From contig DBQM01000057.1 in NCBI GenBank assembly GCA_002305725.1, positions 1 to 27,692 of the forward strand: 27,692 nucleotides of DNA, written 5' to 3'. Source of the DNA: Ruminococcus sp. UBA1394. GTDB lineage: Bacteria; Bacillota; Clostridia; Oscillospirales; Ruminococcaceae. Each line of letters starts with the position of its first letter. Position 1 is the stretch's first letter. The notes beneath the pieces were generated by a model. That model ran no database searches and was not told the origin of the DNA. It saw only the letters and a program-made list of their open reading frames with translations. The position numbers were made by a program, and so were the translations under genes. Shown in pieces: positions 1 through 20,076 of the stretch.

Positions 1-27
1 ATTATATTGTAACAGGAGTTGATGCAG

Positions 28-972
28 ATGCCCTTAGTACCAACGAAAAACAATTCAAATCAAACTAAAACAGAGAAATCCGAAAAACAAGAAGTGGCTT
101 TTATGGTTTCAAAACCCAAATTCAAACTTTCTGACTTAATTCTGTCTGAAAAAAATTTGGACGAATTAAACACAGTTATCAAAGCTAAGGAATGCTGGAT
201 TAAGGTTTTTGTAGAATGGAATCTCCAGTCTGTAATGAAACAAAGAAAGAGTTTGTTTATAAATTTATACGGAGATCCCGGAACAGGAAAAACAATGGCT
301 GCCCATGCAATTGCAAATGAACTCAATAAAGAGATGATTTGTGTTAACTATGCTGACATTGAATCTAAATACGTGGGAGAAACCAGTAAAAATCTGACTT
401 CCCTATTTAAGACCGCTTCCACAAAAGATATCATCATTTTTTTTGATGAAGCGGATGCCTTGCTCAGTAAGCGTGTAACCAATATGTCAAGTTCTACGGA
501 TGTCAGTGTAAATCAGACTCGCTCTGTACTACTTACTTTACTGAATGATTTTGATGGTATGGTGATATTTGCCACAAATTTCATCAGCAATTATGATCCG
601 GCTTTCATGCGTAGAATACAGTACCATATAAAATTTGAACTGCCTGATACAGAATTGAGAAAAAGGTTATGGAGTATGTACATACCAAAAGAAATGCCTA
701 CGAATGCCGATATTCTCGAAATTGCTAAGAAATATGACGGAATTAGTGGCAGTGATATTTCAAATGCCGTATTAAAAGCTGCTTTAAAAGCAGCAAAAAA
801 TCATGCTTTTCTTGTAAAACAATCGGATTTTGAAGAAGCAATCACTGAAATTATAAAAAGCAAAAAGGCAAACAAAAATATTGATGACAGTGATGTGAAA
901 ATCACAAAAACAGAGGTTGTTCCGGAATCAGAGGTTCCGAAAGACATAGTAGCAAAATCAAATAATATGTAA
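28..972 (+). CDS. Classical AAA-family ATPase. Walker A GDPGTGKT, pore-loop-like YVGE, Walker B IIFFDEADAL, sensor-1 ATN, Arg-finger FMRR. It has a short N-terminus with no obvious substrate domain.
   Basis: ORF track 19..972. AGGAG at 14-18 favours the ATG at 28. AAA motifs were read directly from the translation. Confidence 0.75.
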   Translation: MPLVPTKNNSNQTKTEKSEKQEVAFMVSKPKFKLSDLILSEKNLDELNTVIKAKECWIKVFVEWNLQSVMKQRKSLFINLYGDPGTGKTMAAHAIANELNKEMICVNYADIESKYVGETSKNLTSLFKTASTKDIIIFFDEADALLSKRVTNMSSSTDVSVNQTRSVLLTLLNDFDGMVIFATNFISNYDPAFMRRIQYHIKFELPDTELRKRLWSMYIPKEMPTNADILEIAKKYDGISGSDISNAVLKAALKAAKNHAFLVKQSDFEEAITEIIKSKKANKNIDDSDVKITKTEVVPESEVPKDIVAKSNNM

Positions 973-988
973 AATGGAGGAGTTAATC

Positions 989-1357
989 ATGATTTTATTT
1001 TCAGTATTGGCAACAATCGGTGCAGCGGTTGTACTATCTTTGCTTGATAAGTTTTATGATGATATTATCAAGTGGCTCAAGGTTATTGGTCAGGTAGCAA
1101 AAAAAGCTGTGCAGGGGGTGCTTATAGGATGTAAAACTTTTATCAATGCTGGACGTGCTGCTTTTCGCACTGCCGGAAAAGAAATTTCAAGGAATTACTC
1201 AAAAGTCGGCGATCAGTGGCAAGTTACAGAGGTTGAAAGAAATGTTTCTGCTGACAAAATACCTGATGAAATTTATCAGCAGGCTGAACAGACAACAGAT
1301 GATCTGCTTGAACTAACGGCGGATATTGAAGCACAGCTTCTTAAAAATTATCAGTGA
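989..1357 (+). CDS. Small protein with an N-terminal hydrophobic/amphipathic segment. Paralog of the 1803-2249 product.
   Basis: GGAGGAG at 977-983 precedes ATG 989. It is translationally coupled to the AAA ATPase gene. It shares ...NYSK..D....T.V....S.D(K/E)IP(D/A)(E/D)I with ORF 1803-2249. Confidence 0.55.
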   Translation: MILFSVLATIGAAVVLSLLDKFYDDIIKWLKVIGQVAKKAVQGVLIGCKTFINAGRAAFRTAGKEISRNYSKVGDQWQVTEVERNVSADKIPDEIYQQAEQTTDDLLELTADIEAQLLKNYQ

Positions 1358-1365
1358 GGTGCAGT

Positions 1366-1797
1366 ATGGCAAAAGTAAATATATTTGAAAACTTTGGTTC
1401 TTTTCTGGAACAGGGTAAATCCAGTACCAAGAAATCAGATTCTTCTCCGCTGACATGGGAAAAATTCATTGAGAAAACTGGAAAAGATATCGACAAGCGT
1501 CTTATAGCTCATGCTAAAAAAGAAGGACTTGTCTATGTCGGTGGTAAATGTCGTTTTACAGTAACAGCTTCTGAACAGGACGAAAACAAGTTTGTCTTGA
1601 ATGTAGATGCAGAACTGTATTACAAGGATCAGTTTAAAGCTGAAAATAACTTTCAGATCTATCCCCTGCATACCGAAAGGAACTTCGAGGGCTTTGCATT
1701 GGATGATGATGAAACAAAAAATCAGCTTGAAAAGCTCAAAACAGAACAGTATGAATTTAATGTGGAAACACCACAGTTTAAAAATGAAAAGGAGTAA
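1366..1797 (+). CDS. Hypothetical protein of about 143 aa. Soluble and acidic.
   Basis: RBS-like TGAGGTG sits 6 nt before ATG 1366. It overlaps the stop of the upstream gene, so it is operon-internal. Confidence 0.5.
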   Translation: MAKVNIFENFGSFLEQGKSSTKKSDSSPLTWEKFIEKTGKDIDKRLIAHAKKEGLVYVGGKCRFTVTASEQDENKFVLNVDAELYYKDQFKAENNFQIYPLHTERNFEGFALDDDETKNQLEKLKTEQYEFNVETPQFKNEKE

Positions 1798-1802
1798 TTA
1801 TC

Positions 1803-2249
1803 ATGGGATTTTTCAAAAAACTAGGTAGCCTTCTTGACAAAGCATTTGAAAAGATTGCAAAACTTACTAAGAAATTAGTAAAATTCATGGTAAATGGATT
1901 GAGAAAAGTTGCAATGACTATCGGCAAATTCTTTACACTGCTGACACAGTGGATAGACAAGGCTATGAATTACGTTGCAGCAACTTTTGGGGTTATTGTA
2001 TCCGGCGTTCAGACGTTTTTAAAGAAAGTCGGCGATGAATATCAGGAACTTTCATACAACTACTCTAAGCAGTCGGATGGTTCTTACATAAAGAATACGG
2101 TTGTAAAACAGACGTTTGTATCGGAAGACGAAATTCCGGCTGATATAAAGGAAAAAGCTTTGATGATGGAAGAAGGAAACATGATAGATATGTCCACTAC
2201 AACTGCCTCAAAGCAGGAATATGCTTGTAATACTCTAAATATTGCATAA
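1803..2249 (+). CDS. Small amphipathic protein (MGFFKKLGSLLDKAFEKIAKL...). Paralog of the 989-1357 product, with an insertion.
   Basis: AAAGGAG RBS before ATG 1803. Shares the paralog motif with the 989-1357 product. Confidence 0.6.
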   Translation: MGFFKKLGSLLDKAFEKIAKLTKKLVKFMVNGLRKVAMTIGKFFTLLTQWIDKAMNYVAATFGVIVSGVQTFLKKVGDEYQELSYNYSKQSDGSYIKNTVVKQTFVSEDEIPADIKEKALMMEEGNMIDMSTTTASKQEYACNTLNIA

Positions 2250-2266
2250 GGATGGAAGGAAACGTC

Positions 2267-3529
2267 ATGGTTTATATTATTATCTTATTAATTCTTGCAG
2301 GCGCTTTATGGTTTTTTGGTAAAAAAGCCAAAGGTTTTTATAAGGGTCATGAATTTACAATAAAATATATACTACTTTCTTTTTTGTTTGTAACAGTATC
2401 GGCGACTCTTTATGACAGCAGCTCTAATGAAGATTCTTATTATAACAGTTATTATTATGAAAATAATAATGATCTTAATACTGGTCTAATCGTGTCACTT
2501 TGTATTGTTGTTGCTTTATATATAGTTATGCGTTTACTTTGTAAACCGAACATTAATAAATTTTATGATAACAACAGATATACAATAAATTCAATATTTA
2601 TAAGTTCTATAGTTGTATTATTATTATCAGCCTTTATTAAAAGTGTTGCTGTTACTATTATTTGTACTATAGCAGCTGCTGTTATATGCATTTATATAAG
2701 GATATCTTACCAGTCAAGAGTTATTGGTTATATATCTAAATATATTTACAATATTGCTAATGGAATCGATAAGCAAAACTTATTAACTGAAGCTCATTTT
2801 TTCTCACAACCTGAAGCCAAAAGATTGTTGAATCAAGGTTATAAAATTAATGATATGTCGCCTTTGGATTTCATGAGAGCAATTTTAAGAGACAACGTAA
2901 TTAATGGAATAAAAAAAGAATTCATAGAGGGACTTGAGGAAAGTGAAAATAAAGATATAGGAAGAATTTTCTTCTACTACGAATATATACACTATCTCCC
3001 TTACCTTGAAGAACAAGGTATTAATTTAATAGACTGTATTGACGATTTCGGCATTATAAACAGCTCTTATTGGTACATCGAAGATGTGGCATTTTTCAGC
3101 AATGTTCTGTTGGAAGATGCAATATCAGTGGCTGAACTGTCCATAAGAGACACTCCAAAGTTATCAGATGTACCATTTTCACTGTATTATTTTATTAACC
3201 ATATGTATGGCTTGAATTTTTTAAATTCTTATGTAACTGAATATGATTTAGATGGTCTTAAAAATAAACCTGAACTTTTTAAGGATGACTTTGATGCATT
3301 ATATAATTCATTTGGTAAAGCAATGCTTGATGTAATGACAAAGAATAACCGGATAATTAAAACGCCCAGTGGAAATGAAGAGAACGAATTTTTATATTCT
3401 TATAATCATGAAGATGAGGATGGAATAATTAAAGAAGAATATGGTCAGCAGTTTGAAGCTCATAGAGTTCCAATGGATGTTGATATTTCACAAGGACAGC
3501 TGGATGAATTGGCAGGTTGCCCTGCTTAA
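2267..3529 (+). CDS. Polytopic membrane protein. About 4 predicted hydrophobic helices in the first ~150 aa and a ~260-aa C-terminal soluble domain of unknown function.
   Basis: ORF track 2252..3529. GGAAGGA RBS favours ATG 2267, with ATG 2252 as alternative. Long hydrophobic stretches at the N-terminus. Confidence 0.6.
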   Translation: MVYIIILLILAGALWFFGKKAKGFYKGHEFTIKYILLSFLFVTVSATLYDSSSNEDSYYNSYYYENNNDLNTGLIVSLCIVVALYIVMRLLCKPNINKFYDNNRYTINSIFISSIVVLLLSAFIKSVAVTIICTIAAAVICIYIRISYQSRVIGYISKYIYNIANGIDKQNLLTEAHFFSQPEAKRLLNQGYKINDMSPLDFMRAILRDNVINGIKKEFIEGLEESENKDIGRIFFYYEYIHYLPYLEEQGINLIDCIDDFGIINSSYWYIEDVAFFSNVLLEDAISVAELSIRDTPKLSDVPFSLYYFINHMYGLNFLNSYVTEYDLDGLKNKPELFKDDFDALYNSFGKAMLDVMTKNNRIIKTPSGNEENEFLYSYNHEDEDGIIKEEYGQQFEAHRVPMDVDISQGQLDELAGCPA

Positions 3530-3564
3530 TGTTTCCAGATGGTTATAAAAAGTTAACTACAAAA

Positions 3565-3597
3565 ATCTCAGTTACATAATGTGACTGAGATTTTTTA
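3565..3597 (+). terminator. Intrinsic terminator closing the 28-3529 operon.
   Basis: Stem atctcagttac/gtgactgagat with loop ataat, followed by TTTTTT. Confidence 0.6.
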
Positions 3598-3604
3598 AAT
3601 ATCT

Positions 3605-3633
3605 TGATTTCAGTGCTTGCATCTGTTATAATA
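3605..3633 (+). promoter_or_regulatory. Sigma-70-like promoter TTGATT-17-TATAAT for the 3671 gene.
   Basis: Hexamers at 3605-3610 and 3628-3633 with a 17-nt spacer. GGAG sits 10 nt before ATG 3671. Confidence 0.5.
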
Positions 3634-3670
3634 AGTATAGATAAAAAGGAAATAATGGAGAAAAAAATAT

Positions 3671-4336
3671 ATGTCTCTCTTTTCTAACCTTTTCAAGCCA
3701 AAATCTGTCAGTGAAACTGAATCTGTCATAAATCTTCTGAAATGCTGGGAGAAAGAGCATTTTCCTTATAGTGGATACAGTTACACTTCATATACAAGAA
3801 CTAAAATAAATATAAGCAGATATACAGTGTATAAAAGTGAAACAGGAGAAAAAATACAGCTTTCTGATATTGAGTTGCCGCAGACAGAAAAATCAAATGT
3901 CAAGCGTATTGTAAAGGCAGTCGTTGATTGGTGGGAGAATGATAAAAGTTCAACCCTGCCTTATTTTATAGCAGAATACCGCAATAATGTCGCTACTGAA
4001 GTACAAAGGTTCAAAGCAAACTGCATAAAGCTTGATAAGCTTAGCGATGAACTGAAAAAGGACATTCTTTTCTCTGAGATAGAGCGTCTGTTTCAGGCAA
4101 AGCTCAAGGTTCTATATAATGAATTGCTTTTCTGCAAGTTTGAGAATCTTAGAAATGTAAAATATTTTCAGACGATACATAGTAAATTATTGTCGCTCTG
4201 CAATGATATGAAAATTCTGAATACGGCTTTTGCGGATTATATGTATGCCCTTTCCAGAACGGAGTATGAAGATAATAAGCAGGATTTGGAACGAATCCGT
4301 ATCAGTGTAGAAGCAATGTCTGCGGTTGTTGAATAA
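3671..4336 (+). CDS. Hypothetical protein, 221 aa.
   Basis: Own promoter and RBS. Terminator follows immediately. Confidence 0.6.
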   Translation: MSLFSNLFKPKSVSETESVINLLKCWEKEHFPYSGYSYTSYTRTKINISRYTVYKSETGEKIQLSDIELPQTEKSNVKRIVKAVVDWWENDKSSTLPYFIAEYRNNVATEVQRFKANCIKLDKLSDELKKDILFSEIERLFQAKLKVLYNELLFCKFENLRNVKYFQTIHSKLLSLCNDMKILNTAFADYMYALSRTEYEDNKQDLERIRISVEAMSAVVE

Positions 4337-4357
4337 TATGCCAAATAATAAAAATAT

Positions 4358-4398
4358 GCTGCTCATATCCCATATTGTGGGTATGAGCAGCTTTTCTT
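4358..4398 (+). terminator. Intrinsic terminator.
   Basis: Stem gctgctcata/tatgagcagc, then TTTTCTT. Confidence 0.6.
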
Positions 4399-4420
4399 AA
4401 TGATTTTTTCAAAAATGCTA

Positions 4421-4449
4421 TTGCATTTCTCTGCGAATCGTGTTATAAT
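4421..4449 (+). promoter_or_regulatory. Strong promoter TTGCAT-17-TgtTATAAT (extended -10).
   Basis: -35 at 4421-4426, TG at 4442-4443, -10 at 4444-4449. Confidence 0.55.
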
Positions 4450-4456
4450 ATATGTG

Positions 4457-4703
4457 TCAGTTAGCGTATCAAACCCACAACATATGGACAGTACTCATAT
4501 TCATTAGGTGTCGCAACACCAAACAAACCTGAGATTTCAATTTTTCTGTCATAGACATCTAAGGGAATTCACCCTAATAAATTTTATAAAATCGCATAAT
4601 TGTGTAGGGGTGGATCGCCTCCACCAATTGAATATGCGTATTTTTAAAGGTTACAAAAAGGTCGCAAATACGGTAAATAACGTATTTGCGGCTTTTTTGT
4701 TTT
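4457..4703 (+). ncRNA. Candidate small non-coding RNA of about 245 nt. It is bounded by the 4421-4449 promoter and an intrinsic terminator. It contains an internal GGTGGA-tcgcc-TCCACC hairpin.
   Basis: No RBS-preceded ORF lies between promoter and terminator. The track ORF 4508-4744 has no RBS and reads through the terminator. The terminator is cgcaaatacg/cgtatttgcg plus gcTTTTTTGTTTT at 4663-4703. Confidence 0.3.
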
Positions 4704-4793
4704 ATCAGAAATATGCACTTTTGTTCAGTGAGGGGTCAGAGTAAAGGGATTCTGACGAATTTTCTGTCGCAAAATTCTGGAATCCTCTTGTTA

Positions 4794-5046
4794 AAAAACA
4801 ATGCGACAATGCGACAAGGTGATTTTGGTTTGAGTGCGGTTATGTTAAAGTTTGTGGATTTTGGGGGAGATTGCAGCAATTTGCAGTGCTTCAAAAAACA
4901 TATATACAATTCTCTCTTATAAAGAAACAGTGCGACAATGCGACAAGATGAATTTGTTTTAATTGCGATTTTGTTAAAGCTTGTGACTTTGGGGCAGATT
5001 GCGGTATATTGCGGCGTTTTAAAGTATGTATATAACCGTCTTCTGT
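4794..5046. repeat. Two diverged direct repeats of about 128 bp. Each begins with a doubled TGCGACAA and contains doubled TTGCAG (copy 1) or TTGCGG (copy 2).
   Basis: Copy 1 is about 4794-4916 and copy 2 about 4924-5046, roughly 70-75% identical, with a 129-bp period. Related GTCGCAA motifs in the opposite orientation lie at about 4510, 4657 and 4765. Confidence 0.7.
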
Positions 5047-5164
5047 CAGGGAAGTGTGTAGCATCAGTTCTTTGAAGTAAAATTCGCAAAAATAAAAATA
5101 CGCAGGTACAGCGAGAGGTAATCTGAAATACCGTAACAAACAGCCTCCATAAATATATATTATA

Positions 5165-5210
5165 ATTCCGATAAGGTGAATCTTTCAGCCTTATCGGAAT
5201 TTTTGTTTTT
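5165..5210 (+). terminator. Strong intrinsic terminator-like hairpin immediately upstream of the amidoligase RBS.
   Basis: 12-bp perfect stem attccgataagg/ccttatcggaat (5165-5176 / 5189-5200), then TTTTTGTTTTT. Confidence 0.6.
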
Positions 5211-5225
5211 GGGAGGTACTTGAAA

Positions 5226-6320
5226 ATGGAAGAAGAGAGAATCTGTACTCACTGCGGAGAGGAAATCAGTGAGGGAGAAGGAACAACGGTAAACGGAGAT
5301 TTGCTGTGTAATGAATGTGTTGATGAACACTGCATAACATGCGACCACTGCGGAGAAGTCATTTACACAGATGATTGTATCACCGATGACAACACCTGGC
5401 TCTGTCAGGACTGCTTTGAAGATTACTACCGCAGATGCGAAAGCTGCGACAGAATCATTCATGACAATGACGTGAACTGGCATAGTGACCTGCCGTACTG
5501 TGACAGCTGCTATGATGACCTTGATTCAGACGACGAGATTGAGGAGTATAGCTACAAGCCTACGCCATTGTTCAGAGGTGACGGTAAACGATACTTTGGA
5601 GTAGAGCTTGAGATTGACTGCGGTGGAAAGGATAATGATTATGCTTACAGACTGAAAAATATCGGCAACAGTCAGCTTGAAAACATCTACATAAAGTCGG
5701 ATGGAAGCCTTGATGAGGGTCTGGAAATAGTTTCCCATCCAATGACTCTTGAATATCACATGAACGAAATGAACTGGGAGGGTCTGATGAAAGAAGCAAT
5801 AAACCTTGGCTATCGTTCTCACCAGACATCAACCTGCGGACTCCATATCCATGTAAATCGTAATGCTTTTGGGGATAACCAGTCGGAGCAGGAAGAGGTC
5901 ATCAGCAAGATACTCTTCTTCGTTGAGAAAAACTGGAATGAGGTCTTTAAATTCAGCAGAAGAAACAGCTATAACATGAACAGATGGTCAGCAAGATACG
6001 GTTTTGAAAAGACAGGCAAGGAAATCCTTGATAAGGCTAAGAACAGCAGTAATGGCAGGTATGTTGCTGTAAACCTTAACAACTATCATACCATTGAATT
6101 CAGACTGTTCAGAGGCACATTAAAATACAATACATTCATAGCCACATTGCAGATGGTAAATAAAATCTGTGATGTGGCTATTTCTATGTCTGAGAGTGAG
6201 ATTGATGAAATGAGCTGGTCAGAGTTTGTAAGTTCCGTTGAAGAACCTGAGTTAGTGCAGTATCTGAAAGAGCGTAAGCTCTATGTTAATGAGGAAGTGA
6301 ACACTGAGGAGGAAATGTGA
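5226..6320 (+). CDS. Putative amidoligase (glutamine-synthetase-like 'Amidoligase_2'-type) with N-terminal zinc ribbons formed by several CxxC pairs.
   Basis: GGGAGG sits 9 nt before ATG 5226. CxxC pairs: CTHCGEE..CNEC, CITCDHCGE, CQDC..CESCD..CDSC. These are followed by FGVELEI, GLEIVSHP and CGLHIHV, which resemble amidoligase family motifs. A class-II GATase lies downstream in the same operon. Confidence 0.65.
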   Translation: MEEERICTHCGEEISEGEGTTVNGDLLCNECVDEHCITCDHCGEVIYTDDCITDDNTWLCQDCFEDYYRRCESCDRIIHDNDVNWHSDLPYCDSCYDDLDSDDEIEEYSYKPTPLFRGDGKRYFGVELEIDCGGKDNDYAYRLKNIGNSQLENIYIKSDGSLDEGLEIVSHPMTLEYHMNEMNWEGLMKEAINLGYRSHQTSTCGLHIHVNRNAFGDNQSEQEEVISKILFFVEKNWNEVFKFSRRNSYNMNRWSARYGFEKTGKEILDKAKNSSNGRYVAVNLNNYHTIEFRLFRGTLKYNTFIATLQMVNKICDVAISMSESEIDEMSWSEFVSSVEEPELVQYLKERKLYVNEEVNTEEEM

Positions 6321-6544
6321 TGAACAAAGAAAAGGTAAAATCTTTAAAGGAACGTTATCCGGCAGGTACAAGAATAAAGCTTGATTACATGGATGATATT
6401 CAGGCAGTTACGGCGGGTACAAAAGGTACAGTTGACCATGTTGACGATATGGGTACAATCCATATGAAATGGGATAACGGCAGTAGTCTTGGAATATGTC
6501 CTGATACTGACCGTTTTCACGTTGTAGGAAAGGCAGGTGAATAA
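6320..6544 (+). CDS. Small conserved protein, DUF4314-like (YPAGTR..L..MDD.Q....GT.GTV..VDD.GTIH..WDNGSSL).
   Basis: GAGGAGG sits 8 nt before ATG 6320, overlapping the upstream stop. The pattern matches, from memory, a small protein family common in Firmicutes conjugative elements. Confidence 0.5.
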   Translation: MNKEKVKSLKERYPAGTRIKLDYMDDIQAVTAGTKGTVDHVDDMGTIHMKWDNGSSLGICPDTDRFHVVGKAGE

Positions 6545-6546
6545 CT

Positions 6547-7485
6547 ATGTGCGCAATCTACGGATTCTTAAACTACGGCAGAAAAGTTAAAAACAGGGTT
6601 CTGAAAAACATTCTCAGAGAACTGTCAATAGCGGCTGAATGCAGAGGTACTGATGCCACAGGGATAAGCTATGTAAATAATGGTGAAATCGTAACATTCA
6701 AACAGCCGAAACCTGCACATAAAATGAAACTGTTCTTTCCGAAAGATACAGTAGCAGTAATCGGACATAACAGGCTTACAACCCAGGGCAGTGAAAAGAA
6801 AAACTGCAACAATCATCCGTTTGAGGGTAAAACTCCACAGCACAGTTTTGCCTTTGCACATAATGGTGTGCTGTACAATGATAAGGAGATAAGACGTGAA
6901 AAGAAATTACCCAAAACACAAATCGAAACGGACAGTTATGTTGCAGCTCAGCTTCTGGAACAGGCTGAAAATGTCGATATGGATGCTGTTAAAAATATGG
7001 CTGAAATAGTGGAAGGAAGCTTTGTTTTCACGATTCTCCGTGATGACAATACGCTGTTTCTCGTAAAGGGAAGTAACCCGATTACACTGTATCATTTCCC
7101 GGAACAGGGACTGTATATCTACGCATCAACAAAAGAGATTCTGAAAACTGCTTTGAAGAATGCAAAGTTTAAAGAACCCTATGAAGAGATAAAAATTGAT
7201 ACTGGCGATATATTGCAGATAAATTCCGACGGTGAAATTTTCTGTGATACTTTTGAAACTTTAAGCCGCTATAGCTTTGACTGGCATGACTGGTACGGTC
7301 TGTATTCATGTGAGGAATCGGAAGATGATTTGCTTGCAATATGCAATTGCTTCGGAGTAGACAGGGAAGATGTGGAATTTCTTTATTCCTGTGGCTATAC
7401 ACCGGACGAGATAGAGGAAATGCTCTTTGATACAGACCTTTTTGAGGAAACGTTAAATGAAGCAAAAGCGCTGTTAAAGTGTTAA
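6547..7485 (+). CDS. Class-II (Ntn-type) glutamine amidotransferase-like protein with an N-terminal nucleophile Cys2 (MCAIYGF...).
   Basis: AGGTGA RBS. The Met-Cys-Ala-Ile-Tyr-Gly start is typical of Gn_AT_II / Ntn hydrolases. It lies in the same operon as the amidoligase. Confidence 0.7.
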   Translation: MCAIYGFLNYGRKVKNRVLKNILRELSIAAECRGTDATGISYVNNGEIVTFKQPKPAHKMKLFFPKDTVAVIGHNRLTTQGSEKKNCNNHPFEGKTPQHSFAFAHNGVLYNDKEIRREKKLPKTQIETDSYVAAQLLEQAENVDMDAVKNMAEIVEGSFVFTILRDDNTLFLVKGSNPITLYHFPEQGLYIYASTKEILKTALKNAKFKEPYEEIKIDTGDILQINSDGEIFCDTFETLSRYSFDWHDWYGLYSCEESEDDLLAICNCFGVDREDVEFLYSCGYTPDEIEEMLFDTDLFEETLNEAKALLKC

Positions 7486-7514
7486 GCATAAAAAATGAAA
7501 TGGAGGAAATCAAC

Positions 7515-7628
7515 ATGAAAGAATTTTTAGCAGGACTTATTCTGACACTGGTTGTCGGAGGCGTTGGAATCGCAATCGAAATGCAGCAGGAGAAAGAGGT
7601 GAAATATATCGATGCCAATAGCAATTGA
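7515..7628 (+). CDS. Small hydrophobic peptide, 37 aa (MKEFLAGLILTLVVGGVGIAIEMQQEKEVKYIDANSN).
   Basis: TGGAGGAAA RBS 5-6 nt upstream. Not in the ORF track because it is under 60 aa. Shares FLAG and AIEM motifs with the next peptide. Confidence 0.35.
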   Translation: MKEFLAGLILTLVVGGVGIAIEMQQEKEVKYIDANSN

Positions 7629-7692
7629 GATGTTTCTTGCAGGTGTTGCGTGTGGTATGGAGATTCTGGCACTTGTTAAGAATAAGAAGTAA
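7612..7692 (+). CDS. Small hydrophobic peptide, 26 aa (MPIAIEMFLAGVACGMEILALVKNKK).
   Basis: GAGGTGA RBS 9 nt upstream. Overlaps the end of the previous peptide in another frame. Confidence 0.3.
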   Translation: MPIAIEMFLAGVACGMEILALVKNKK

Positions 7693-7697
7693 AACTG

Positions 7698-7731
7698 TGA
7701 GGCTTGGCGTATGCTGAGCCTCATTTTTTTG
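7698..7731 (+). terminator. Intrinsic terminator closing the amidoligase operon.
   Basis: Stem tgaggct/agcctca, then TTTTTTT. Confidence 0.6.
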
Positions 7732-7744
7732 GAGGGAATTGAAA

Positions 7745-8038
7745 ATGATTAAAGTTACAAATTTAAGAGAAACTGACATGATTAAGCCTTTAATGCTGAG
7801 AGCCTATATCGCAAAGACAATCACAGCTCTCATGGAAGGGTATAGTGTTGATACTCTTGATGATATCGGGTGTTTTATTGTACTGGAAAAGTACGAATTT
7901 GTTGAGTTTCAGATTAATGAAATGGAGTTTATCGAAGTTCTTGAAATCGGAGGAAAAAACTATCTTCATGGTGTAAGAATTATCGGTGACAGCTATGGTG
8001 AGGATGTTTTTCTGCCAGTTGAGGTGATAAAGGTATGA
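7745..8038 (+). CDS. Hypothetical small protein of about 97 aa, translationally coupled (ATGA overlap) to serine recombinase 1.
   Basis: GGAGGG sits 8 nt before ATG 7745. The stop overlaps ATG 8035. Confidence 0.5.
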   Translation: MIKVTNLRETDMIKPLMLRAYIAKTITALMEGYSVDTLDDIGCFIVLEKYEFVEFQINEMEFIEVLEIGGKNYLHGVRIIGDSYGEDVFLPVEVIKV

Positions 8039-9609
8039 GCAGTCTGATAATACCAAAAGTAGCTCTCTATGCCCGTTTCAGTTCTGATAATCAGAGAACG
8101 GAGAGTATAGATGCTCAGATAAGAGCAATGACAGAATACTGCCGACAGCAACATTGGCAGATTGTCGCTACATATACAGATGAAGCTAAAAGTGCTACAA
8201 CTGATAACAGACCTCAGTTTCAGCAAATGGTGTCTGATTCTTCAAAAGGATTATTCAGTATCGTGCTTGTACACAAATTGGACAGATTCAGCCGTAACAG
8301 GTACGATTCGGCAATGTATAAAAGCAGGCTTAAAAAGAATAACGTAAGAATTGCAAGCGTACTTGAAAGAATTGATGATACTCCCGAAAGTGTCATGATG
8401 GAAGCAATGCTTGAAGGTATGGCTGAATATTATTCGAAGAATCTGAGCCGTGAGGTTATGAAGGGTATGAATGAAACTGCGTTACAGGCAAAGCATACAG
8501 GCGGTTGTTGTCCGCTTGGGTATGATTTGAATAGTGACAGAAGGCTTGTAATAAATTCTCATGAAGCCGAGTCGGTCAGAATAATTTTTGATATGTATGA
8601 CAATGGCTATGGATATTCAGAAATAATTGATTTTCTGAATGAACACGGGTACAAGACAAAGAGAGGTTGTACATTCGGTAAAAATAGTTTGTATGAAATA
8701 CTGGGCAACGAGAAATATACGGGCGTATATATTTTCAATAAGGCTTCTGCTAAAAATTCCGGGACTAATAAAAGGAATAATCATTCATACAAGGCATATG
8801 ATTCAGTTGTCAGAGTGGAAAACGGCTGTCCACAGATAATCAGCAAGGAACTTTTTGAACGTGTTCAGAAAAGAAGAATGGCAAACAAGCATATAGCCGG
8901 AAGTTATCACAGCCGTGAGTTTTACCTTTTGTCAGGGCAGATTTTTTGTGGGATATGCGGTAAACGTTTACAGGGCAATTTGAGATTTTCCGGAAGAAAC
9001 AAGAGCAGACTGGCTACATACCGCTGTAATACTCATCGTTCTGAATGTTCATGTAAAGAAATCAATAAGGATTATCTGGACCAGTATATTACAGAACTCC
9101 TGCAGGAGAAAATATTCAACAGCAAGGCTATGCACAGAATTGTAAACAGGCTGAACAGTTACATCAAAAAATATAACAGGCAGTATGATGATACCTATGC
9201 CAATGTACAGGCTGAGTATGATGAAGTATGCAAAAGCCTTGGCAATCTTACAGAAGCAATCGAAAAAGGCGTTATTACCGAATCAATTGTAAACCGTGCA
9301 GAAGCACTCGAAAAGCAGAAAACAGAAATACAGACAAAGCTTAACGATATGCATCAGTTTATACCGTTGAAATATGAGGATTTTTCTCCGTTGATTGACG
9401 AGTTTAAAGGACTGAAAAGAAACACTGAGGAGTTCAGGACATTCGTTCAGAGATATGTTATAAAAATCACTGCGTTTTCTGAACATCTTGAAATTGAACT
9501 TAACACTGGTCTGGGAATGGCTGAGGAGATTAATGAAGTGGTGAGTATTTCACGTGAAAATCTTTATGAAATGTATGGGAGCCGTGTCCGTAAACAGAAG
9601 TGGGAATGA
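8035..9609 (+). CDS. Large serine recombinase (resolvase catalytic domain, recombinase domain, zinc ribbon, coiled coil).
   Basis: N-terminus ALYARFSSDNQRTESIDAQ with a catalytic Ser. VLVHKLDRFSRN. Zinc ribbon CGICGKRL...YRCNTH...C.C. 524 aa. Confidence 0.9.
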   Translation: MSSLIIPKVALYARFSSDNQRTESIDAQIRAMTEYCRQQHWQIVATYTDEAKSATTDNRPQFQQMVSDSSKGLFSIVLVHKLDRFSRNRYDSAMYKSRLKKNNVRIASVLERIDDTPESVMMEAMLEGMAEYYSKNLSREVMKGMNETALQAKHTGGCCPLGYDLNSDRRLVINSHEAESVRIIFDMYDNGYGYSEIIDFLNEHGYKTKRGCTFGKNSLYEILGNEKYTGVYIFNKASAKNSGTNKRNNHSYKAYDSVVRVENGCPQIISKELFERVQKRRMANKHIAGSYHSREFYLLSGQIFCGICGKRLQGNLRFSGRNKSRLATYRCNTHRSECSCKEINKDYLDQYITELLQEKIFNSKAMHRIVNRLNSYIKKYNRQYDDTYANVQAEYDEVCKSLGNLTEAIEKGVITESIVNRAEALEKQKTEIQTKLNDMHQFIPLKYEDFSPLIDEFKGLKRNTEEFRTFVQRYVIKITAFSEHLEIELNTGLGMAEEINEVVSISRENLYEMYGSRVRKQKWE

Positions 9610-10007: not shown

Positions 10008-11534
10008 TTATATGTCGATATATTCCAGCTCAACGAACATTTCACTTTGTTCGCTGATAATGTTGCCTAATCGGTATTGTTCACATTCTTTTCCGCTATA
10101 TACATAATTGAGTTTGAATACAGCATCAAAAGTGTGCTTGTCAGCATTATCCTTGGAATCAAGCAAAGAAACTACATAATGCCAGATGCCTAACAAAAAT
10201 GGCTCAAATTCAAGTTCTTCAATATCACATAATTGTTCTTTGGTCAAATGAGTACCATCAGAACAAACGTAGAATTTCTGGCTATCTTGTATACTGCTGT
10301 CATTTTTGATAAATTCGATTATTTCAACAACAAGATCTTCATTTTTTTTCGGTGAGTTAAAATATTTTCTTCGGATTTTAATTACTTCACTCAAAATTTT
10401 ATGATAATGATTTTTCACCATTGCGGAGAAGTTATCAATTTGTTTTCTGTCATTCAGTCCTTCAGTTTTATAAATGGTTTTAAGAACTTCAAATTGGTTG
10501 TGGTGAAATCGTGCATAACTTTTATCAGGGGTTATTTTACAATCATTTTCTATGGTGAGATTTATTAAATCCAGAAATAATTTTTCAATTGCGTTTTTAT
10601 TTCTTTTGGGATGAATGGTCTGAATATTTTCCGTCAGAAACTTAAAGAAAATACTTCTGGATAATGTTATATCCTCTTTTTCCAATATAGAAATAATATC
10701 AGTACGGATATCCAGTTCTGACGGATAATAATCTAGTATTCTATTACATATTTCAGGGCTTGAATTCTCATTTTTTGAGGCTGATAACTTGGAAATTGAA
10801 TATCTGAGATGATTTGTTGCTCCCTTATTTGGTTCTGCCTTCATATGGTTATATTCAAGGTTGATATTCAGTTGCTTATAGTTAATATCAACTGATATTT
10901 TCTGATTTTTTTCAATTTTTGTTTGAAGTCGCTGTGAAGATATCAGGTAGTGCCAAACTCCTAATATAAATGCTTCAAACTCAAAATCTATCATGTTTCT
11001 GATATCGGATTTAGTTCTTGATGAGCCATTGGAGCAAATATAAAATTTCTGGTGCTCTTCAATACTGTTATCGTTAAGTATAAGGTACAGTGCTTTCCGG
11101 ACAAGTGTATCGTTTCTGAGAGATTTGTTATCATCAAAATATCTTTCGGCAAATTGAACCGCCTTTATATAAATTTTTTGGTACTGGTTTTTTACTTCGT
11201 AGTCAAATTCGTCTACAATTTCGCTGTCATTGAAAATATATACAACACTGTTTTTTTTATAGAACTTTCCAAGTCTGAAATCACCAGAAGCGTTTTTTAT
11301 TGACCCTAAGATTCGATTTGTATTATTATCCATCAGTCCCTCAAAATTACCGAGCGTATTATTCAAATGATTCGTCAATTGATTCAGGTCATAAAACATA
11401 TGTGCTTGTGACAGCTTTCCGATATTATTGTAGTTGTCACCGGGATTAAGTGGATTTTTCCTTGTATCTAAAAGTAAATTAAAAAATATACTGGCTGTGA
11501 ATTGCATATTTTTGCATGGCAGATTTATTGGCAT
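10008..11534 (-). CDS. Hypothetical 508-aa protein with an internal tandem domain duplication. Repeated motif QKFY[IV]CS[ND]G..TK...[DE]FEFE[AP]F[IL]LG[VI]WHY[LV][IV]S.
   Basis: AGGAG RBS 9 nt upstream on the minus strand. It is the only minus-strand gene. The two repeat units lie at about aa 150-210 and 400-470. Confidence 0.7.
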   Translation of the reverse strand: MPINLPCKNMQFTASIFFNLLLDTRKNPLNPGDNYNNIGKLSQAHMFYDLNQLTNHLNNTLGNFEGLMDNNTNRILGSIKNASGDFRLGKFYKKNSVVYIFNDSEIVDEFDYEVKNQYQKIYIKAVQFAERYFDDNKSLRNDTLVRKALYLILNDNSIEEHQKFYICSNGSSRTKSDIRNMIDFEFEAFILGVWHYLISSQRLQTKIEKNQKISVDINYKQLNINLEYNHMKAEPNKGATNHLRYSISKLSASKNENSSPEICNRILDYYPSELDIRTDIISILEKEDITLSRSIFFKFLTENIQTIHPKRNKNAIEKLFLDLINLTIENDCKITPDKSYARFHHNQFEVLKTIYKTEGLNDRKQIDNFSAMVKNHYHKILSEVIKIRRKYFNSPKKNEDLVVEIIEFIKNDSSIQDSQKFYVCSDGTHLTKEQLCDIEELEFEPFLLGIWHYVVSLLDSKDNADKHTFDAVFKLNYVYSGKECEQYRLGNIISEQSEMFVELEYIDI

Positions 11535-13021: not shown

Positions 13022-13036
13022 AAGGTGTTGGTTTAT

Positions 13037-14770
13037 ATGGGTATAAAGAAACCTCCGGAAATTTCGGAGTTTAAGGATACTTCAGCTGAGGAGTCAATAA
13101 ACGAGATAAAAAAGGGCATTGTTGAATTCGGCATGAAATCACTGGACAAAAACGACATAAAGTATCTGTCACAGACAGAGCTGCACTTTCCTGTAGTTTC
13201 TGTTCAGGATAAACATCATCTGATTGCTGTAAGCACAAAACGTTTTAGAGGTCTTGTATGGCTCTGTAGCTGGTTTGAGGTTGAGTCAGCGTACAGGGAC
13301 AAGAATAACGTGTACCGTGTAAGGCTGAGAATAAATGACAGAGCTGTTGAGGTCGATTACGATACATTATATCCGAAGGACATCACCAAACTTTCAAGAT
13401 ATGGTCTTATTATTAATTTTGACCATGCTGAAAGTCTGAGCAGATATATTTTCAGAATGATTGCAAAACTTGAAGTAAAGGAACAGTCCAACGGCATGGG
13501 CTTTATGATGCAGGGCGGACAACTGACATTCAGGGCATATGATGAAGAACCGCAGATACTCCAGTATACTGAAGGCATAACGTTGTCAGAGTACGTGGAA
13601 GGGCTAAACAGTCTGCTTACAAATACGGCTGTAATGTTCGCACTGTGCTGCAGCTGTGCTTCGCTTTTTCTTGCGTATTTAAGTATGAAATGCAGCATAG
13701 CACTGCAGTCATTCATAATTTCTTTCTACGGCAAGAGCACAACAGGCAAGAGCACATCACAGGCTTTAATGACATCAGTATTCACGAAGCCGGACGACAA
13801 GAAGATATACATTCCTTTTTTTGGCACACTTAATGCTATAGTGCGGAACCTGTCTCAGAAATATGGAATTCCCCAGCTGTTTGACGAGGCAACTGTTTCA
13901 TCGGGTCTGAATATGGAAAATCTGCTTTACACTATAACACTCGAGCAGGATAAGAGCAGATGCCGTAGTAATACAATGTTGGAAAAATCTGACACGTGGA
14001 AGCTGATTGCAATAACTTCCTCTGAAAACAGATTGCTTGCAGATAATCGTATGCATAACAAGGGGCTTGACGCTCGTCTGCTGAGTTTTGAACTGAAATT
14101 TACCGACAGCCGTGAACACAGTGACTTGATACATGAGTTCTGCGGCAAAAATTATGGCATTCTGGGCAAATCATTATCAGAATATCTTTTAGGTTCAGAG
14201 CCTGAAAAGATTGCTGAAATTTACGAAGAATGCAAGGAATTTATGAGAAATGCAATTGATGATGAATTGCGTTTCGACCTTACAGAAAGGCTTGTAAACG
14301 AGTATGCGCTCATTCTGATGTCTGCAAGGATTCTCAGTGATTTTGGCGTTAACATGGACACAGAGGGCATAACAGCCATTCTGACAGCAAATCACAATGA
14401 AACACGTGAGAGGACTGATATTGCTGACAAGTACTATCAGCATCTCGTAGCGTACGCAGTTACCCACCCATACATGGAAGGAATCAAGAAGGATGAAGCA
14501 AATAACTCTGTTGCATTTGTTGATGAGCTTTTCCTGAAAATTCTTGAAAATCACGGGGCTTCAAATCCCGACCTGGTCATAAGGGAACTTGATGCAGGAG
14601 GATATATTTTCAGACGTAAGAAAAACTCAATCAAGAACAGGCTTCGTTTCAACGATACACTTGTAAGTTGTTATGAAATTGTTCTGCCGAAGGACGATTC
14701 TGAATCCGATGACGGCTGTATGACGCTTGAATACGTACTTACACATTTTGAGGGGCTTGATGAATCATGA
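13037..14770 (+). CDS. P-loop NTPase of the SF3-helicase / DUF927 / VirE-like type. Likely a replication initiator or helicase. Walker A FYGKSTTGKST, Walker B LFDEA, motif C ITSSEN.
   Basis: AAAGGTG RBS before ATG 13037. Motifs read from the translation. Sits in a replication module with PolA downstream. Confidence 0.65.
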   Translation: MGIKKPPEISEFKDTSAEESINEIKKGIVEFGMKSLDKNDIKYLSQTELHFPVVSVQDKHHLIAVSTKRFRGLVWLCSWFEVESAYRDKNNVYRVRLRINDRAVEVDYDTLYPKDITKLSRYGLIINFDHAESLSRYIFRMIAKLEVKEQSNGMGFMMQGGQLTFRAYDEEPQILQYTEGITLSEYVEGLNSLLTNTAVMFALCCSCASLFLAYLSMKCSIALQSFIISFYGKSTTGKSTSQALMTSVFTKPDDKKIYIPFFGTLNAIVRNLSQKYGIPQLFDEATVSSGLNMENLLYTITLEQDKSRCRSNTMLEKSDTWKLIAITSSENRLLADNRMHNKGLDARLLSFELKFTDSREHSDLIHEFCGKNYGILGKSLSEYLLGSEPEKIAEIYEECKEFMRNAIDDELRFDLTERLVNEYALILMSARILSDFGVNMDTEGITAILTANHNETRERTDIADKYYQHLVAYAVTHPYMEGIKKDEANNSVAFVDELFLKILENHGASNPDLVIRELDAGGYIFRRKKNSIKNRLRFNDTLVSCYEIVLPKDDSESDDGCMTLEYVLTHFEGLDES

Positions 14771-15030: not shown

Positions 15031-16554
15031 ATGGCAAATATAAACAGTACAAAATACGCTAAAACATACCGCAGAATCAGTTCACACAATCAGGTCGGTA
15101 ATAACAGTTTAAATGCTCAGGAACAAGCAATCAAGCAATATGCAAAAGAGCATAATATAAAAATTGTTGGTGACTATGTGGATGTTGCTAAGAGTGGTAC
15201 ATCAGTTAAAAACAGAAGCGGATATCAGCAGATGATGAGTGATCTTGAGAAAAATCCTAAAGTGCAGTTTATACTGGTGCATAATCTGGATCGTCTCCAC
15301 AGAAACACACGTGAGCAGCTTAACATGATATATGAGCTTAAAGCCAGAGGCATAGGCATACTTACAGTAGGCGGACTTAACACACTGGACGAGGAATGTA
15401 TGTCAGAAATACTTGATGAATCCTGTCAGGCTGAGAAGTACTCTCGCAGGCTAAGCAAGGAAACAATGAAAGGGCTCAAAATCAATGCTGAGCAGATGTT
15501 ACACAATGGAGGGATTCCGCCGTATGGATATACAGTAGGACCGGATAAAAAACTCCATATTGATGAGTCAAAGGCTCCGGCAGTCAAAAGGATTTTTGAA
15601 ATGTATGCGGCTGGCATGAACTATCAGCAGATTATCAGGTGGCTTGATGATAACGGCTATAAAAATACAAAAGGCGGTTCATTTGTCAAGACTGCCATTA
15701 AAAGTATTCTTGAAAATGAAAAATACTGCGGTACTTATTTCTGGAACAAAAGGTCAGCTAAAGACTATCGTGGCATGAGAAACAACCATAAGCTGAAAGA
15801 TGACTACTACCGTGTTCCGGATGCGATTCCGGCTATTGTAAGTAAAGAATTATTCAATAAGGCTCAGGAAAGGCTTAAAGATAGTAAAAATAAAATCAGA
15901 AATCATAACGGTAAAAATTACTATCCTATGAACGGGAAGATATTCTGCAAAAAGTGCGGAAACAAGCTCAGTGGTCAGGTTCAGTACAGTAAAACCAACA
16001 AAAACAATGAGCCTGTGAAACAGTACAAATTTAGTTGTAAGTGTCCGGCAGTTAAGACAGTTAATGAGAAGTATCTTGATGATATGGTTATTTATGGGCT
16101 CAGAGAGTGCATATTTTCCTCTGCAAACATTAAAGAGATATTACAAAGGCTTAATGAATACAGCCAGTCTCAGAACAAGGAAATTGACCTCCAGATAAGT
16201 CTGTTAAATTCCGAGAAGGCAGAGCTTGAAAAAAGGCGTAAGAACCTTATGGATATTGTCAGCAAGGGGGAATACATACAGTCTATTGTTGATGAAATCA
16301 GGGACAAAGACGTGCAGATTGAAAAAATTTACAACAGAATCCGTGAATACGAGGCGTCAAAGAAAGTTTTCACAAAGGAAGACCTTGATTTCATAAGGAG
16401 CAAGTTTACAAGCTATGTCAGAGAGGAACGCAATGAAGATACTCTTGCTTTTCTTAATGATACTGTAGACAGGATAGAAATTGACGATAAAATCAGCGTG
16501 ATGCTGAAAAAGAACATCAGCGTGGACCGTGACACCAAGAAGATTTTCGGCTGA
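15031..16554 (+). CDS. Large serine recombinase (second copy, divergent).
   Basis: YRRISSHNQ catalytic Ser region, LVHNLDRLHRN, zinc ribbon CKKCGNKL...C.C, coiled-coil C-terminus. 507 aa. Confidence 0.9.
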   Translation: MANINSTKYAKTYRRISSHNQVGNNSLNAQEQAIKQYAKEHNIKIVGDYVDVAKSGTSVKNRSGYQQMMSDLEKNPKVQFILVHNLDRLHRNTREQLNMIYELKARGIGILTVGGLNTLDEECMSEILDESCQAEKYSRRLSKETMKGLKINAEQMLHNGGIPPYGYTVGPDKKLHIDESKAPAVKRIFEMYAAGMNYQQIIRWLDDNGYKNTKGGSFVKTAIKSILENEKYCGTYFWNKRSAKDYRGMRNNHKLKDDYYRVPDAIPAIVSKELFNKAQERLKDSKNKIRNHNGKNYYPMNGKIFCKKCGNKLSGQVQYSKTNKNNEPVKQYKFSCKCPAVKTVNEKYLDDMVIYGLRECIFSSANIKEILQRLNEYSQSQNKEIDLQISLLNSEKAELEKRRKNLMDIVSKGEYIQSIVDEIRDKDVQIEKIYNRIREYEASKKVFTKEDLDFIRSKFTSYVREERNEDTLAFLNDTVDRIEIDDKISVMLKKNISVDRDTKKIFG

Positions 16555-19303: not shown

Positions 19304-19330
19304 GCGGCAGTGCAGAAAGAAGTGAGAGTT

Positions 19331-20059
19331 ATGCCATTTTGTATATACTGTGGTCATCAGTTAGCTGACGATGCAAAATTCTGTTCTGAGTGTGGAAAAA
19401 CAACAAATATATCCAATCAAAACACTCAGAGAAAAACAGTCTATGACGGCGAGATACATAAATGTCCAAATTGCGGAGAAATATTAAATTCATTTGCTTC
19501 AAATTGTGCTTCTTGTGGATACGAATTGCGTGATGCAAAGAATTCAAATGCTATTAGAGAGTTTGCTTTAAAATTAGAACAAATAGAGAATAGTCGAAAT
19601 GTTAGTGCTAATGGCTTTTCAGGGTTAAAAAATAAAATAAACCAACTTTCAAGTGTTAATCCTATGGATGAGCAAAAAATATCTTTAATAAGAAGTTTTG
19701 TTATTCCAAATACCAAAGAAGATATTTATGAATTTATGATTCTTGCGTCATCCAATATCGATTTAAAACTATATGGGTTTGCCTATAGTAGCAGTCAATT
19801 CCAAGGTATGATGGCAACATCTCAAAGAGCCATTTCTGATGCTTGGCTTGCAAAATTTGAACAAGCGTATCGAAAAGCTCAACTTCTATTTATTGAAAGT
19901 CAAGAACTCTTGAGTATCGAGGAACTTTATGAACGTAAGATGAAAGAAATACAAAAGAAAAAAAGGCAACTCCCAATGTTTTTTATATTTGGTTTCGGAG
20001 GAGCGTTGCTATTGGTGTTACTAATTTGGATACTTGTATTTTTAACAGATGCAATGTGA
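19331..20059 (+). CDS. Membrane-anchored protein with two zinc ribbons (CIYCG..CSECG and CPNCG..CASCG) and a C-terminal transmembrane helix.
   Basis: Four CxxC pairs near the N-terminus. C-terminal hydrophobic stretch FFIFGFGGALLLVLLIWILVFL. Confidence 0.6.
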   Translation: MPFCIYCGHQLADDAKFCSECGKTTNISNQNTQRKTVYDGEIHKCPNCGEILNSFASNCASCGYELRDAKNSNAIREFALKLEQIENSRNVSANGFSGLKNKINQLSSVNPMDEQKISLIRSFVIPNTKEDIYEFMILASSNIDLKLYGFAYSSSQFQGMMATSQRAISDAWLAKFEQAYRKAQLLFIESQELLSIEELYERKMKEIQKKKRQLPMFFIFGFGGALLLVLLIWILVFLTDAM

Positions 20060-20076
20060 TTTGAAAGGAGTTTATT

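Follow-up and report, generated by a model that had tools for sequence, protein, structure and literature searches.

A mobile AAA ATPase module of Ruminococcus with four orphan, predicted membrane-associated partners: a possible conflict system

What could an AAA ATPase without an N-terminal domain do in the company of four proteins that match no named system? The question is raised by an operon at the left end of a contig from Ruminococcus sp. UBA1394 (DBQM01000057.1, assembly GCA_002305725.1; all 27,692 nucleotides were analyzed and are called the window here), in which the gene for the ATPase (AAA) is followed by the genes for four proteins, P2 to P5. An original prediction, made from the DNA letters, could not assign this architecture to any known system, and its caution has proved justified: Pfam, NCBIfam, PADLOC, PHROGs, and PDB profiles found none for P2-P5 beyond sub-threshold noise, and literature searches found no described system of this architecture. 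The answer that we favor is tentative and could well be wrong: the operon may belong to a mobile, Xre-repressed, toxin-antitoxin-like conflict module, acting in abortive infection, phage defense, or element addiction.

Are these genes real, and do they form a unit? All five open reading frames (ORFs) are real genes under purifying selection because dN/dS in the pairwise comparison with L006, the closest divergent copy (L numbers denote related loci), is 0.08 for AAA, 0.12 for P2, 0.10 for P3, 0.22 for P4, and 0.31 for P5; constraint declines along the operon, from the ATPase to the membrane protein. A ribosome-binding site (RBS) or Shine-Dalgarno-like sequence lies 5' of each of the five starts, and independent gene calls on public assemblies return the same five products, at the lengths listed in Table 1. 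The original prediction placed the five + strand genes correctly: the ORFs match and independent gene callers agree. It went astray in describing stops and starts as overlapping. None overlap; the genes are separated by gaps of 16, 8, 5, and 17 nt, and for genes this closely spaced, translational coupling is a possibility rather than a given. The terminator assigned to the operon holds up well: its hairpin folds with -22.1 kcal/mol (z = -4.77), and 0/200 shuffled sequences fold equally well.

The same genes recur together elsewhere. A scan with a P3 profile recovered the order AAA-P2-P3-P4-P5 in 30/30 metagenome loci, as far as their contigs reach; the same order holds in the genome, Logan, and IMG/VR loci wherever the sequence extends far enough, and in loci looked up through distant P3 homologs. 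In a genome scan with AAA, four sources had the full order: a Ruminococcus flavefaciens metagenome-assembled genome (MAG), R. callidus ATCC 27760 (complete genome), an uncultured Ruminococcus, and an Oscillospiraceae MAG. The versions in a Clostridiales MAG, Ca. Gallispira, and a rumen MAG are shorter, with AAA, a P2-like protein, a P3-like protein, and a membrane protein of a different kind. In L018, L020, and L021, P5 is either replaced or shortened. The conserved core is thus AAA, P2, and P3, after which come one or two membrane proteins that vary (here, P4 and P5). Wherever the host is named, it belongs to Ruminococcus, Oscillospiraceae, or related Clostridia. The genes therefore form one conserved co-directional cluster, as first proposed, and homologs were never found scattered in the neighborhoods inspected.

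The unit is larger than the five genes to which it was initially confined: relatives add an Xre repressor, a promoter with operators, and often a further small gene, all lying past what is the window edge here. A divergent Xre-family repressor gene is found 5' of the module in L001 (whose AAA is identical to that of the window), L006 to L008, L026, L029, and L036/L037. Next to AAA in the relatives there is usually a gene for a 66-aa protein with four cysteines, which ends 19 nt before the AAA start. In L001, this gene (8207-8407; CxxC...C...C) is joined by one for a 52-aa Cys-rich protein (7628-7786) that is weakly similar to the TraR/DksA zinc ribbon; neither protein has an above-threshold family match. 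Between the divergent Xre and 66-aa genes, L001 carries (8110-8181) a 12/12 consensus sigma-70 promoter (TTGACA, 17 nt, TATAAT, extended -10 TG). A perfect inverted repeat of 12 nt, TGGTGAATAGTG / CACTATTCACCA, encloses the promoter; its arms are probably Xre operators.

What became of this control region in the window? The left contig end truncates the module, leaving the upstream Xre/promoter region beyond the window. In an upstream alignment, the window, L002, L003, and L004 part from L001 and L005 about 13 nt 5' of the AAA RBS, and a window-type sequence (…GTAAGGGACTTACCCGACAATTATATTGTAACA; window 1-14, L003 1-65, L004 1-70) replaces the 66-aa gene. The contigs of the window, L002, L003, and L004 all end at most 71 nt from the divergence point; the sequence upstream of the junction was found neither in the window nor in the fetched loci or IMG/VR, and the window contig is not simply circular. 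The junction may be a repeat, the end of an insertion sequence, or a recombinase junction, and the window copy may lack an Xre gene and promoter of its own.

The first gene of the operon was predicted to encode a classical AAA ATPase with almost no N-terminal domain, and this identification stands. Pfam detects AAA (1.6e-29) and AAA_lid_3 (1.1e-7); the AAA domain begins at residue 80, behind ~79 residues of which the first ~25 (1-25) are low-complexity. Walker A (GTGKT, G85-T89), the pore loop K-Y/F-V-G-E (K114-E118, with Y or F at 115), Walker B (FFDEAD, D140/E141), sensor-1 N184, and the arginine pair R195/R196 are invariant across seven relatives, at identities down to 47%, as is the unusually conserved stretch after Walker B, LSKRVTNMSSSTDVSVNQTRSV. 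Judged by these residues, AAA is a catalytically intact classical-clade protein without an N-domain, of the substrate-threading type.

To which family does it belong? The top PADLOC match is IetA (models at 1.1e-37 to 2e-16), and the best NCBIfam match is IteA, at 133 bits, with PAN (122 bits; cut-off 500) and CdvC/Vps4 (116 bits) close behind; the curated NCBIfam cut-offs of named AAA families lie at 500-650 bits, and AAA falls far below all of them. The nearest PDB structures are the D2 domains of VAT, Cdc48, and p97 (2e-43); phrog_3757, of unknown function, matches at 7e-63, and TRIP13 models reach only 3e-17, weaker than IetA. By sequence, the nearest named family is IetA, yet AAA is probably not an IetA ortholog, its 133 bits comparing with an IteA cut-off of 510.

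The C-terminal tail of AAA holds a feature that is missing from the original prediction: an element of ~19 residues that is common to the tail, P2, and P4 (Table 1). It consists of an alternating, β-strand-like stretch followed by S/P-E-x-E-[VI]-P-x-[DE]-[IV]. The element is not a product of chance, since 0/20000 shuffles gave the core pattern in all three proteins at once (per protein, it appears in at most 1% of shuffles). It is retained in every operon version; a tail variant, VSEEY..SQ[IL], is found in the more distant L018 and L020 operons and in the solitary AAA of Moraxella phage Mcat5.

Two of the small proteins had been called paralogs, and rightly so: BLASTP aligns P2 and P4, both of which carry the element, with E = 6e-6, and in their family alignment W, G, F, Y, P, and I residues are invariant in both. 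P2 opens with a transmembrane (TM) helix (1-19); an amphipathic helical region comes next, then the shared element, and finally a conserved C-terminal helix that is acidic and amphipathic. In P4, the TM helix is replaced by a strongly amphipathic cationic helix, MGFFKKLGSLLDKAFEKIAKL (hydrophobic moment 2.13), after which come the core and shared element in common with P2. P2 has no match in Pfam, PADLOC, PHROG, or PDB profiles, and the top PDB hit of a joint P2/P4 profile, to a designed helical bundle, is not significant (E-value 0.022).

P3 is a soluble α+β protein with a short amphipathic N-terminus of the FFxxL type, a variable disordered linker, and a globular core (28-135). Its family, which has no Pfam domain, is small: 5.8 billion proteins contain only 55 clusters of it at 90% identity. 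An AlphaFold2 (AF2) model built from 42 sequences gives residues 28-135 a predicted local distance difference test score (pLDDT) near 90, with the core in the order helix, three long strands, helix, strand; this model has no significant fold match, and P3 has no PDB profile match. The N-termini of P3 in L015 (MGINFFEKLGRQLDK) and R. callidus (MAGFFERLANMID) look like that of P4, which suggests that P3 has a short membrane-binding helix tied to its core by the variable linker.

P5 had been described as a 4-TM protein with a large soluble domain. The polytopic character and the soluble domain are supported; the number of segments is 4 or 5, with residues 105-143 forming one 39-residue hydrophobic stretch. 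The first loop is lysine-rich and the second is acidic and Tyr/Asn-rich, and these features point to an N-terminus outside the cell. P5 has a Tyr/Asn/Asp-rich loop and an acidic soluble domain of ~277 aa. P5 relatives have 3, 3, and 7 hydrophobic segments, and because these counts are odd, we favor a cytoplasmic location for this 277-residue C-terminal domain. The very end of P5 (window 3500-3529, ...ELAGCPA) is acidic and conserved among P5 proteins as ...VP(M/L)D...(D/E)-L-x-G-C-(P/A)-x, with an invariant-looking Cys two residues before the end.

P5 is also the fastest-evolving gene of the operon (64% amino-acid identity to L006, as against 90% for AAA) and a rare one: an exhaustive HMMER search of 1.84 billion proteins yielded only 17 representative clusters of relatives, and the 10 scanned have no known domain of their own. 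One match, P0071, carries glutamine-synthetase domains and looks chimeric. A word-indexed search with the P5 alignment was swamped by words from TM segments and returned three proteins; the P5 profile found nothing significant among PDB sequences; and the AF2 model, built from a four-sequence alignment, failed (pLDDT 41). In R. callidus-type loci from human-gut metagenomes (L040-L058), AAA and P4 are 99-100% identical and P2 is nearly so, while P5 has divergent alleles, with a nucleotide identity of ~80%, as does the N-terminal third of P3, with ~87%; this pattern suggests recombination or diversifying pressure on P5 and on that third of P3.

Where does the operon reside? The window is a mobile element: the large serine recombinases, DUF927 primase-helicase, and family A DNA polymerase (PolA) that it encodes (Table 1) make up an integrative-element backbone also present in L029 and L031, and the proposal that the operon is mobile-element cargo is borne out. 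Serine recombinases mark defense loci of Firmicutes (PMC12632615). In L029, the operon sits in a variable slot after PolA/WYL on the same backbone as that of the window; in the window itself, this slot is occupied by other cargo. Defense genes keep company with the module: a type IV methyl-directed restriction enzyme in the window, a type I restriction-modification (RM) system 5' of the operon in L026, a type IIG RM enzyme 3' of it in L002, and a kinase-STAND-TPR protein 5' of it in L001. The module also occurs apart from recognizable elements. The R. callidus copy is chromosomal, between cellulosome genes and in no recognizable element; both it and the L006 copy sit in unremarkable stretches of chromosome, accompanied by the Xre gene alone.

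These observations are the basis of the conflict reading. The module is an autonomous unit because it is found in unrelated flanks, including the R. callidus chromosomal site. A harmful product would fit the way in which it is controlled in relatives, namely by a 12/12 promoter, a 12-nt inverted repeat, and a divergent Xre gene. We favor the conflict reading because the module is autonomous, mobile, tightly repressed, and set amid defense genes, and because the one protein in it that can be recognized, AAA, is closest to the IetA antitoxin. The gradient of constraint and the variable membrane partner (P5 replaced or shortened; divergent P5 and P3 alleles) also support it. IetA is the antitoxin of the protease/AAA toxin-antitoxin pair IetAS, which is also anti-phage and whose mechanism is unknown (PMC13069673).

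How might such a module work? With P2 holding a TM helix, P5 polytopic, and P3 and P4 starting with amphipathic helices, all partners are predicted to be bound to the membrane or associated with it. A hexamer of AAA could be recruited to the inner face of the membrane via the shared element, for which P3 or the cytoplasmic domain of P5 would be a likely common receptor. There, using ATP, AAA would extract or unfold membrane-active P2/P4 (and/or P5) and so keep them harmless, in parallel to IetA as the antitoxin of IetS. Infection or loss of the element would upset this balance, whereupon assembly of the membrane proteins would harm the membrane and bring either the cell or the phage to a halt; possible triggers are sensing by the fast-evolving P5 or the N-terminal region of P3, or a drop in ATPase activity. 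A more specific version, a hitherto unrecognized kind of bacterial immune or addiction switch, is doubtful: a soluble AAA unfoldase, tethered to the membrane by an element that it shares with its substrates, would continually extract paralogous pore-forming or membrane-perturbing proteins, much as Msp1 or Vps4 would, with P3 and P5 docking and sensing and an interruption being the kill signal.

Several points weigh against the conflict reading as a whole: (i) no component is a recognizable toxin, and the notion of a "membrane effector" draws on hydrophobicity and amphipathicity, P2-P5 having no homologs of known function; (ii) the link to IetA is weak, at 133 bits versus 510, with PAN, CdvC, and Cdc48 scoring nearly as high; (iii) two contexts, L006 and L016, have no defense genes nearby; (iv) dN/dS is below 0.5 in every pairwise comparison, so that positive selection is not shown; (v) the Xre gene and promoter region are missing or replaced in the window itself; and (vi) what the shared element binds to is a guess, as is whether AAA acts as an inhibitor or an activator.

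Could the module keep phages out without killing the cell? In non-abortive superinfection exclusion, P2, P4, and P5 would block DNA entry at the cytoplasmic membrane, and AAA would assemble or recycle their complex. Presence of the module on integrative elements and on "viral" IMG/VR contigs would suit this role, as would the predicted membrane association of all partners. Tape-measure proteins form the injection channel of phages, and tape-measure PHROGs are the sole matches of P4; these matches are weak (9e-5 and 5e-4), however, and probably reflect amphipathic helical composition. A close relative of AAA stands by itself, as a moron, where Moraxella prophage Mcat5 ends; Mcat5 was considered as a source of partner genes and rejected, since AAA is solitary there, with a WYL regulator, and the ORFs at the start of the record encode HicB-like and helix-turn-helix proteins and are unrelated. 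Against exclusion, known exclusion proteins need no ATPase, tight Xre control of a perfect promoter suits a harmful product more than a constitutive shield, and the R. callidus copy lies outside any recognizable element; we consider exclusion unlikely.

A second alternative is membrane remodeling or repair of the Vps4/ESCRT-III or PspA/Vipp1 kind, with P2/P4 polymerizing on damaged membrane through their N-terminal TM or amphipathic helices and AAA disassembling the polymers via acidic C-terminal helices. CdvC/Vps4 is among the top AAA matches (1.5e-33; PDB 4lcb, 7.7e-26), and the general plan is similar: a classical AAA with small paralogous helical proteins, an N-terminal membrane helix, and acidic C-terminal helices, of which the acidic amphipathic helix at the end of P2 is conserved. 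The N-termini of P4 and P3 (MGFFKKLG..., MGINFFEKLG...) resemble helix α-0 of PspA/Vipp1. In bacteria, AAA proteins that partner PspA/Snf7 are known (PMC11237479). The homology that this plan calls for was not detected: P2/P4 have no Pfam Snf7 or PspA_IM30 match at E <= 0.1, and hhalign against E. coli PspA returns a probability of 0.4%, aligning 7 N-terminal residues only. Also unlike these systems, P2 and P4 are shorter (122-148 aa, against about 220 aa for the PspA/Snf7-type family), AAA lacks an MIT domain, and the module is mobile and island-borne, with a narrow distribution unlike that of a stress-repair system. Remodeling thus has a slim chance of being correct.

Alternatively, the module could serve the life cycle of the element itself, in export or release, lysis timing, or a membrane complex, together with the genes for an amidoligase and a class II glutamine amidotransferase (GATase). 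This gene pair lies next to or near the operon not only in the window but also in L015, L026, L031/L037, and L032/L059, and the module travels with the DUF927, PolA, and serine recombinase backbone. Its position varies, however: in L029 it follows PolA/WYL, in the window it precedes the amidoligase, and in L059 it comes after a recombinase; the R. callidus and L006 copies have neither element genes nor an amidoligase; and no transfer, lysis, or secretion domain was found with Pfam. We give this possibility about as little credit as remodeling. Of the three functions listed by the original prediction (remodeling, abortive infection, and secretion), the evidence favors conflict over secretion, and remodeling is left without support from homology.

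A housekeeping complex for proteostasis, sporulation, or cell division, which the original prediction had named as what would refute it, is effectively refuted: AAA has only general similarity to FtsH (103 bits; cut-off 600), PAN (122; 500), and SpoVK (30; 423), with pup_AAA also below its cut-off (70; 505), and the module is patchy, strain-variable, and carried on mobile elements, with 55 P3 clusters and 17 representative P5 clusters among billions of proteins.

How does the module compare with known systems? It resembles IetAS (Gao_Iet), a plasmid toxin-antitoxin pair, in its best PADLOC/NCBIfam match and in having a single-domain classical AAA encoded first in a small mobile operon; in addition, a relative at 34% identity adjoins a SNF2/DrmD-like helicase gene, as in the ietHAS variant (PMC13069673). 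Unlike in IetAS, whose toxin IetS is a subtilisin-like protease, no peptidase family was found in the operon proteins or their neighbors and PADLOC reports no IetS match; the partners are four orphan, predicted membrane-associated proteins; and AAA has a conserved C-terminal tail element common to its partners.

Other comparisons are more distant. Msp1/ATAD1 is a single-ring classical AAA with aromatic pore loops, an extractase of membrane proteins that has its own TM anchor; the AAA described here is also of the single-ring classical type, and its proposed clients are membrane-anchored proteins that it would reach from the cytoplasm, but it is soluble, and tethering would go via the shared tail element. 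A likeness to Zorya comes from L034 (MT835507.1, 1703-10951), where the gene for the distant AAA relative at 34% identity is flanked by those for the SNF2/DrmD-like helicase (PADLOC PDC-M27C) and for a 414-aa protein, with ZorA-like and ZorB-like genes coming next. By its gene content, L034 is a Zorya-like locus with an IetA-like ATPase; it shows this AAA lineage put to another use in conflict loci, alongside membrane machinery. The idea that P2/P4 are homologous to the 414-aa protein was considered and rejected. Unlike Zorya, the window encodes no MotA/MotB-type proteins, and PADLOC is empty for P2-P5. CBASS with Cap6/Cap7 (TRIP13 and HORMA) differs further: no HORMA or cyclase match was found in the operon.

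Table 1. Coordinates of features in the window
Feature	Coordinates	Strand	Remarks
AAA ATPase gene	28..972	+	314 aa
P2 gene	989..1357	+	122 aa
P3 gene	1366..1797	+	143 aa
P4 gene	1803..2249	+	148 aa
P5 gene	2267..3529	+	420 aa; alternative start 2252
RBS of the AAA gene	14..18	+	AGGAG, from sequence
RBS-like sequences of later genes	977-981, 1355-1360, 1790-1794	+	GGAGG, GAGGTG, AGGAG, respectively
Shared element, AAA tail	895..951	+	residues 290-308; VKITKTEVVPESEVPKDIV
Shared element, P2	1220..1276	+	residues 78-96; QVTEVERNVSADKIPDEIY, aligned on invariant Pro92
Shared element, P4	2094..2150	+	residues 98-116; NTVVKQTFVSEDEIPADIK
Intrinsic terminator closing the operon	3561..3597	+	16-bp stem 3561-3595, then U run
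Separate transcription unit	3604..4391	+	outside the conserved module
Promoter-like site of the separate unit	3604-3632	+	downstream of the operon
221-aa orphan gene of the separate unit	3671-4336	+	
Second terminator	4358-4391	+	closes the 221-aa gene unit
Amidoligase_2, then class II GATase	5220-7485		amidoligase with N-terminal zinc-ribbon/LIM-like region; phrog_16683, 8e-127
Large serine recombinases (three)	8035-9609, 15031-16554, 25305-26882		
508-aa orphan	10008-11534	-	30-31% GC patch, AT skew reversed
DUF927 primase-helicase	13025-14770		
Family A DNA polymerase (PolA)	16618-18582		
Double zinc-ribbon protein, then SPFH/Band-7 + GYF_2 protein	19310-21447		249 aa and 456 aa
Type IV methyl-directed restriction enzyme	21627-24746		1039 aa; PLD, helicase, DUF3427; PADLOC 1e-233

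The rest of the window holds further cargo (Table 1). The 221-aa orphan gene follows the operon only in window-type loci (L001-L004) and is absent from L006, L015, L016, L026, and L029; Pfam, PADLOC, PHROGs, and NCBIfam return sub-threshold noise only for its product. Beyond it, some 800 nt (4400-5200) have no long ORF and no Rfam match, with terminator-like hairpins at 4358-4391 (+) and 4690-4663 (-); Rfam and tRNA scans of the window as a whole were negative. The 508-aa orphan, with no Pfam or PADLOC match, is probably separately acquired cargo. The pair of zinc-ribbon and SPFH/Band-7 genes, which lies just 5' of the type IV restriction gene and has no PADLOC match, may be further membrane-associated cargo. 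Positions 1-8000 of the window had no megablast match in collections of phages and plasmids.

What is new here, and why would it matter? The kind of AAA protein and the use of AAA proteins as components of toxin-antitoxin and defense systems were known; what is new are the families of the four partners and the tail element that they share with AAA in part. Four families (P2/P4, P3, P5, and the 66-aa Cys-rich protein) are currently unannotated, among them P3, with a confidently predicted fold that has no known relative. If the conflict reading is true, the shared element would offer a concrete point from which to test how an AAA ATPase recognizes its clients when it lacks an N-domain, and the idea of an AAA protein as an antitoxin, embodied by IetA, would be widened from a protease toxin to membrane toxins. 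The module would also add a defense or addiction system for Ruminococcus and Oscillospiraceae, the dominant fiber degraders of gut and rumen, whose phage defenses are, to our knowledge, almost unstudied.

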